From: a virus
Lineage: Duplodnaviria; Heunggongvirae; Uroviricota; Caudoviricetes
DNA: 12,440 bases
Reading direction: 5' to 3' (one strand)
IMG/VR virus record: IMGVR_UViG_2698536348_000004
Shown here: in pieces, positions 12,041 through 12,224 of the stretch
Position numbering within the stretch: position 1 is the first letter of the stretch
Layout: the number at the start of each line of letters is the position of its first letter
The notes under the pieces: generated by a model
What the model saw: the letters and a program-made list of their open reading frames with translations, nothing else
What the model was told of the DNA's origin: nothing
The model's database searches: none
Program-made: the position numbers and the translations under genes

Positions 12041-12080
12041 TACGGCGCTGACAAAGCGCAATAACCAAAGTGAACTTTGG
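12041..12080 (+). promoter_or_regulatory. Candidate nutL (boxA-like element plus boxB-like hairpin)
   Basis: CTACGGCGCTGACAAAGCG (core 12046-12058), matching the nutR candidate at 18 of 19 positions, followed 6 nt later by hairpin CCAAAG-TGAA-CTTTGG (12065-12080). Confidence 0.4.
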
Positions 12081-12224
12081 GGTGTGGTGAAGGGTTCATG
12101 GACGGGAATATGTCGCACGTAAAGCGGCGAGGCCTGCGGGACTATTGCCGAATTGAAGTAGGCCGAAACAGGTCGAAATGGGTCTCCCACCTACCACACC
12201 ACCAAAGTTCATCAGGAGGTCTAT

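Follow-up and report, generated by a model that had tools for sequence, protein, structure and literature searches.

The leader of the antiterminator gene N in the viral DNA analysed here (IMG/VR record IMGVR_UViG_2698536348_000004, 12,440 nucleotides, hereafter the window) carries two sets of complementary blocks, and the question raised by this locus is whether the blocks pair in the RNA and, if so, what the resulting structure is for. In Stx-converting phages (e.g., 933W), N is produced before any other regulator, and the cascade that leads to Shiga toxin release is gated by its level. In the 933W/H-19B/HK97 family, the structure described below very probably represents the ortholog of the stem in the N leader of phage lambda that is sensitive to RNase III. 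Were the 933W-type leader to be processed by RNase III like that of lambda, the development of Stx phages would respond to the RNase III activity and the growth state of the host.

Gene context of the N leader

The window holds a 933W-type lambdoid immunity region with the map order reversed. Positions 11740-12333 share 99.7% identity with the Stx2 phage 933W and with many other Stx1/Stx2 phages, and HK97 matches positions 11990-12230 with 98.3% identity (BLAST). The GenBank annotation of 933W was carried to window coordinates (locus offset +10239), and the features are listed together with the RNA elements in Table 1. The P_L transcript is placed to start at ~11980-11984 by alignment with the lambda pL RNA (AUCAGCAGGACGCA...). 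Codons 1-36 of N match PHROG 271, the N-like antiterminator family. An IS1203/IS629 element interrupts N after codon 36; thus, the prophage probably cannot make N, and the leader element is a relic in this genome, its target gene being broken by the IS. The exact N::IS junction finds no single contiguous match in complete E. coli genomes.

Table 1. Features of the N leader and its surroundings, in window coordinates
Feature	Position	Strand	Sequence and remarks
nutR boxB	8532-8546	-	UCGCUGACAAAGCGA; counterpart of the nutL boxB
Terminator tM	11737-11758		From the 933W record
P_L promoter-like	11947-11975	+	Sigma-70-like; -35 TTGATA 11947-52; -10 CATTAT 11970-75
nutL	11993-12059	+	933W GenBank annotation; contains two spacer hairpins and boxB
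True boxB	12045-12059	+	GCGCU-GACAA-AGCGC; 5-bp stem, pentaloop; inside the annotated nutL
Local hairpin	12065-12080	+	CCAAAG-UGAA-CUUUGG; -6.4 kcal/mol
5' arm of the long-range helix	12071-12089	+	UGAACUUUGG + GGUGUGGUG; GU-rich part corresponds to 'boxC' of nutL
Interior cassette	12090-12191	+	Enclosed by the helix; predicted fold a four-hairpin multiloop
3' arm of the long-range helix	12192-12211	+	UACCACACC-A-CCAAAGUUCA; A12201 bulged
Shine-Dalgarno (SD) of N	12214-12219	+	AGGAGG; begins 2 nt past the helix end
Antiterminator N, first 36 codons	12225-12333	+	933W/H-19B/HK97 type; ATG 12225
IS1203/IS629 element end	12334-12440	+	IS3 family; inserted in N; outside the RNA element

The nutL site includes two spacer hairpins (UCACC-AGGUC-GGUGA, 12001-12015, and GAUUC-GAAUAU-GAAUC, 12025-12040), presumably the 'reducer' dyad symmetries known from H-19B nut sites. 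A boxB was recognized by a 5-bp G/C-rich stem, a GNRA-like pentaloop (GAAAA, GAAGA or GACAA) and a match to the other nut site. The hairpin at the end of the annotated nutL differs from the boxB of nutR solely in a compensated closing pair (G-C to U-A). The sequence-only reading, by contrast, had attached the label 'boxB-like' to the local hairpin that follows; that label is wrong, as the nutR-matching boxB lies upstream and the local hairpin presents a UGAA tetraloop on an A/U-rich stem of 6 bp. On the nutR side, a hairpin (UAUGCG-UUUCCA-CGCAUA) is found ~40 nt downstream of boxB, and there is no boxC-like tract and no comparable long-range helix.

A long-range helix between nutL and the N ribosome-binding site

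Four complementary blocks had been proposed from the sequence alone, and all four are present; GAACTTTGG (12072-12080), GTGTGGT (12082-12088) and CCAAAGTTC (12202-12210) lie where they had been placed, whereas ACCACAC occupies 12193-12199 and not 12194-12200. RNA folding bears out the long-range pairing and yields a helix that exceeds the length first proposed. The outer helix runs over 10 bp from U12071-A12211 to G12080-C12202, and the inner helix over 8 bp from G12081-C12200 to U12088-A12193, followed by G12089.U12192, with the bulged A12201 separating the two segments. The total is 18 Watson-Crick pairs and one G.U, i.e., 19 bp with a single bulge. On the P_L transcript, the helix lies downstream of nutL and ahead of the SD of N, which is not itself sequestered by the stem.

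The two arms form a duplex of -29.7 kcal/mol. In the full leader, all pairs but the terminal G.U have a pairing probability of at least 0.95, the helix is present in both the minimum-energy fold and the centroid structure, and a penalty of 17 kcal/mol is incurred when the 3' arm is forced to be single-stranded. The fold of the whole leader has a z-score of -3.9. Under a strict helix count (18 Watson-Crick pairs, one bulge), none of 1000 dinucleotide shuffles reaches 14 pairs or more, which excludes chance, and a looser count that allows G.U is matched by 1 of 300 shuffles. The strict count was used in place of a shuffle test on RNAduplex energy; the best such energy between the leader halves is ~-53 for real and shuffled sequences alike (loose duplexes with large loops). 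The helix is unannotated in the database records inspected, which include those of 933W, phi345, HK97, H-19B and lambda, among others.

A local hairpin that excludes the helix

The local hairpin just 3' of boxB and the long helix have the segment CUUUGG (12075-12080) in common; thus, the two folds are mutually exclusive, as had been suggested from the sequence alone. In nascent transcripts that end before ~12212, CUUUGG is predicted to reside in the local hairpin, which the long helix replaces thereafter. The local hairpin is an element in its own right and is conserved: it is kept beside at least five different types of boxB and is also found in lambda and P22, with different loops, and it is absent from leaders with an outer arm of the phi80/PA2 type. 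The covariation of this hairpin is not separable from that of the long helix, as its 3' half is constrained by the latter. A second copy of CAAAG, for which the long helix has no need, is present repeatedly, which argues that the alternative fold is under selection.

Conservation and covariation among lambdoid leaders

All 18 leaders folded (933W, H-19B, phi80, PA2, lambda, 434, P22, Sf6, mEp213, Louie, CL707, HK542, mEp332, SPN9CC, epsilon34, Oslo, S.Inf 5-2 and S107) have the closing helix in their minimum-energy structure, and nine representative IMG/VR variants have it as well. A scan of IMG/VR for the junction of the 3' arm and the SD returned 120 loci with 38 leader variants, whose interiors, 60-220 nt in length, are of at least a dozen unrelated types and are all flanked by complementary arms. 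When arm pairing is checked over the 129 leaders of the set built from these loci (36 distinct arm combinations), the helix is kept in all that are correctly anchored.

An alignment of the arms of 35 distinct leaders has 94.6% of its cells paired, compared to 35-43% after a shift of the partner by 1-3 columns. Double-sided changes are observed in 14 of the 19 helix pairs among the 35 distinct arm sets, where four anchor pairs are invariant by construction and it is the inner arm, together with the outermost pairs, that supplies the covariation signal. These pairing values are matched by none of 500 shuffles. In addition, 39 cells hold G.U, as against 4 with A.C; thus, the constraint acts on the N-sense RNA. 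The covariation strongly supports the predicted helix across lambdoid phages and provides a clean case of a long-range mRNA helix that outlasts the wholesale exchange of its contents. The comparison also assigns a structural role to the GU-rich 'boxC' tract of nutL.

Proposed role in N expression

RNase III reportedly cuts the lambda N leader at +88/+89 and +197/+198, in work associated with Kameyama (1991) and Wilson (2002), and these positions, when placed on the lambda fold, leave the expected 2-nt 3' overhang. By homology, we infer that the leader of the window would likewise be subject to RNase III cleavage and would serve the autoregulation of N. The searchable literature holds no study of RNase III cleavage or N autoregulation for 933W, H-19B or HK97, and RNase III is not linked in the literature to the N leader of 933W or H-19B.

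The proposed sequence of events begins on the P_L transcript, where the small hairpin would form first, after nutL. Once the 3' arm emerges ~120 nt later, CUUUGG and the 'boxC' tract are predicted to swap partners and to enter the 19-bp bulged helix. The helix would bring the nutL RNA, bound by N and Nus factors, beside the ribosome-binding site of N, such that N acts in cis to repress its own translation, and it may additionally hinder access of the 30S subunit. RNase III would then cut both strands of the helix, with cleavage predicted at G12080/G12081 and C12203/A12204 by homology with lambda. Such cleavage would separate nutL from the N message, leaving an N mRNA that starts 10 nt before an unstructured SD, and N synthesis would rise. 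The level of RNase III, which follows growth conditions, may in this manner adjust both N and the choice between lysis and lysogeny.

If the cuts fall as predicted, the 5' product would end flush with the local hairpin and the ribosome-binding site of N would be open. It is suggested here that, after cleavage, the local hairpin could re-form as a flush 3'-terminal cap that protects the nutL RNA, which stays with the antitermination complex. The N protein of H-19B needs fewer host factors than that of lambda; given this difference, Nus-dependent translational repression may differ from that of lambda.

The interior cassette and alternative explanations

The RNA enclosed by the helix behaves as a mobile cassette. 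The cassette of the window recurs at ~91-97% identity in phi80 (L003), PA2 (L004), Louie (L015) and CL707 (L016), regardless of the nutL and N types of these phages, and the mosaic junctions lie within the arms of the helix. In other phages, the slot between the arms is filled by at least 12 unrelated cassettes. One helix position within the interior covaries cleanly (U-A to C-G, columns 60/95), with a possible second compensation adjacent to it. The leader and cassette of the window match no Rfam family, even at E = 10, and ARAGORN makes no tRNA call for the window or for any of 11 related loci; the cassette was on these grounds rejected as a tRNA or tRNA-like element. Papers on the sRNAs of EHEC prophages make no mention of this locus.

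Other cassettes have features of their own. A tRNA-like interior is observed in L070 (1552-1678, - strand) and L121, with a score of 39.6 bits against the Rfam tRNA model (gathering score 29); its acceptor, D and T arms are intact, ~70 nt replace the anticodon arm, and it receives no ARAGORN call. In L097, a T-arm-like GAUGGUUCGACUCCAUC adjoins the 3' arm. The idea that the bulged A followed by CCA mimics the discriminator and CCA end of a tRNA was discarded, as the tRNA register of L070 stops 2 nt earlier. The differing cassettes of SPN9CC and HK542 (L007 and L017) and of the IMG/VR loci L032, L039 and L063 end in hairpins that resemble one another, with loops of the kind AGAUAAGCA or AGAUUAGCA, and that directly abut the 3' arm, suggesting that these cassettes have a sub-module in common that stacks on the closing helix.

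One alternative explanation is that the helix holds cassettes or acts as a platform for processing: the 5' strand, anchored by nut, would pair with the 3' strand so that RNase III excises the enclosed RNA, the interchangeable interiors, one of them tRNA-like, being the functional products. The proposal is compatible with a role of the helix as the ortholog of the lambda stem and is supported by (i) the many unrelated interiors held between the same arms, (ii) the preservation of the 933W-type interior across differing nutL and N types, with its cleanly covarying position, (iii) the match of the L070/L121 interior to the Rfam tRNA family and (iv) the parallel of the rrn leader-trailer helix that encloses 16S rRNA (PMC10250234, PMC8632103). 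By contrast, the cassette of the window has no Rfam family, the covariation within it is thin (2 pairs), ARAGORN finds no tRNA in these loci, and the diversity could be neutral filler swapped by recombination at the conserved arms. The explanation is judged unlikely. It is equally doubtful that the layout of nutL, boxC, cargo and complement forms a general excision platform akin to the rrn helices, in which the swappable interiors, among them the widely shared 933W/phi80-type cassette and the tRNA-like one, would be functional small RNAs that RNase III frees early in infection; if it did, control of N and release of the cargo would both be tasks of the closing helix.

A second explanation, regarded as improbable, is that the helix is an architectural 'reducer' only. 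The structure does put nutL within a few nucleotides of the SD in space, and the nut sites of H-19B are said to hold dispensable stems that act by sequestering spacer nucleotides, a finding attributed to Neely and Friedman in 2000. The arms, however, are homologous to the lambda stem, an RNase III target in the literature cited in PMC5371410 and PMC5725501, and RNase III typically acts on helices of this kind, ~20 bp long and with a conserved bulged purine.

The local hairpin could in principle be a weak intrinsic terminator or attenuator ('tL0'-like), for which the long helix would be the antiterminator. A weak tL0 terminator accompanies nutL in lambda (PMC7315355), and the two folds are mutually exclusive. 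The hairpin, however, is A/U-rich and of low stability (Table 1), it is followed by GGGGUGUGG with no U tract, and a terminator scan is negative. The 3' arm, moreover, is transcribed ~120 nt too late to stop termination at the hairpin, and this explanation is considered very unlikely.

The complementary blocks may alternatively be viewed as mosaic recombination junctions, or as a feature of the DNA, with no RNA function. BLAST does reveal a mosaic leader with module boundaries inside the arms: phi80, PA2, ArgO145 and others share with the window only ~12075-12207 (boundary at 12075/76), H-19B and others share only 11990-12084, and lambda-type leaders retain both ends and have the middle replaced. 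Junctions alone, however, do not account for inner arms that differ between families and yet are complementary, with 14 pairs changed on both sides and no equal among 500 shuffles, and the excess of G.U over A.C indicates RNA on one strand; thus, the view is strongly disfavored.

Some phage records carry CDSs of 'hypothetical proteins' within the N leader (at window positions 11964-12122, + strand, and the equivalent in L002, and at 235-369 in L015); being without family match and with unconserved reading frames, they are probably spurious calls over structured RNA. That the region encodes a small protein, from ORFs of 52, 65 or 68 aa that overlap the leader or from an ORF of 58 aa that starts at ATG 12099, is scarcely credible despite such annotations in some phage records (e.g., phi345 and Louie), as none of the 3 ORFs has a PHROG match, the ORF of ATG 12099 stops after 19 codons in phi80 where the RNA is conserved, and entire interiors are exchanged for unrelated sequence.

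Comparison with known systems

The ortholog of the lambda stem, as the preferred explanation, can be compared with three systems. The 'reducer' stems of H-19B are from the same phage family, and they likewise sequester nucleotides and bring flanking sites together. They differ in location, as they lie inside nutL between boxA and boxB, whereas the helix of the window is downstream of boxB and spans the leader.

The leader-trailer helices around 16S and 23S rRNA share the order of elements with the N leader. In rrn operons, nut-like elements are followed by a GU-rich boxC, which forms the 5' strand of the leader-trailer helix. The helix is a target of RNase III, and the antitermination complex is believed to keep hold of the 5' strand until its partner emerges (PMC10250234, PMC8632103). 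The likeness in sequence was compared by the GU-rich character of boxC alone. By contrast to the rrn helices, the cargo of the N leader is a cassette of 60-220 nt, not rRNA, and what results is control over the translation of N.

The closest relative is the N leader of lambda. According to PMC5725501, which cites Wilson 1997 and 2002, lambda N represses its own translation via NutL, located ~200 nt upstream, and the leader between NutL and N is 'highly structured'; the RNase III targets in this leader are attributed to Steege 1987 in PMC5371410. The window differs from lambda in that it has another N protein and another boxB (with the P22-type GACAA loop), its interior is unrelated in sequence, its helix is 3 bp longer and lies 2 nt from the SD, compared to 8 nt in lambda, and RNase III cleavage and N regulation are predicted by inference for the 933W/H-19B/HK97 family. 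The resemblance to the lambda RNase III site that the sequence-only reading had noted is supported, and the evidence goes beyond mere likeness, with the same fold, homologous arms and the same bulged A at the same position. In the lambda leader (pL +1 to the N AUG at +223), G81-G96 pairs with C187-U203 around the bulged A195; the arms are GGCUUUGGGGUGUGUG / CACACACC-A-CCAAAGCU in lambda and GAACUUUGGGGUGUGGUG / CACCACACC-A-CCAAAGUUC in the window. The shared traits include (i) the position on the transcript, the homology of the arms (CUUUGGGGUGUG ... CACACC-A-CCAAAG) and the bulged A, (ii) the length enclosed between the innermost pairs, which is 102 nt here and 90 nt in lambda, and (iii) an upstream competing hairpin made from a second CAAAG copy, which in lambda is CAAAGC-AGAAG-GCUUUG. 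Lambda specialists will find nothing surprising in these features of the leader helix and, judged by homology, the element is a well-supported but ordinary instance of a known regulatory structure.
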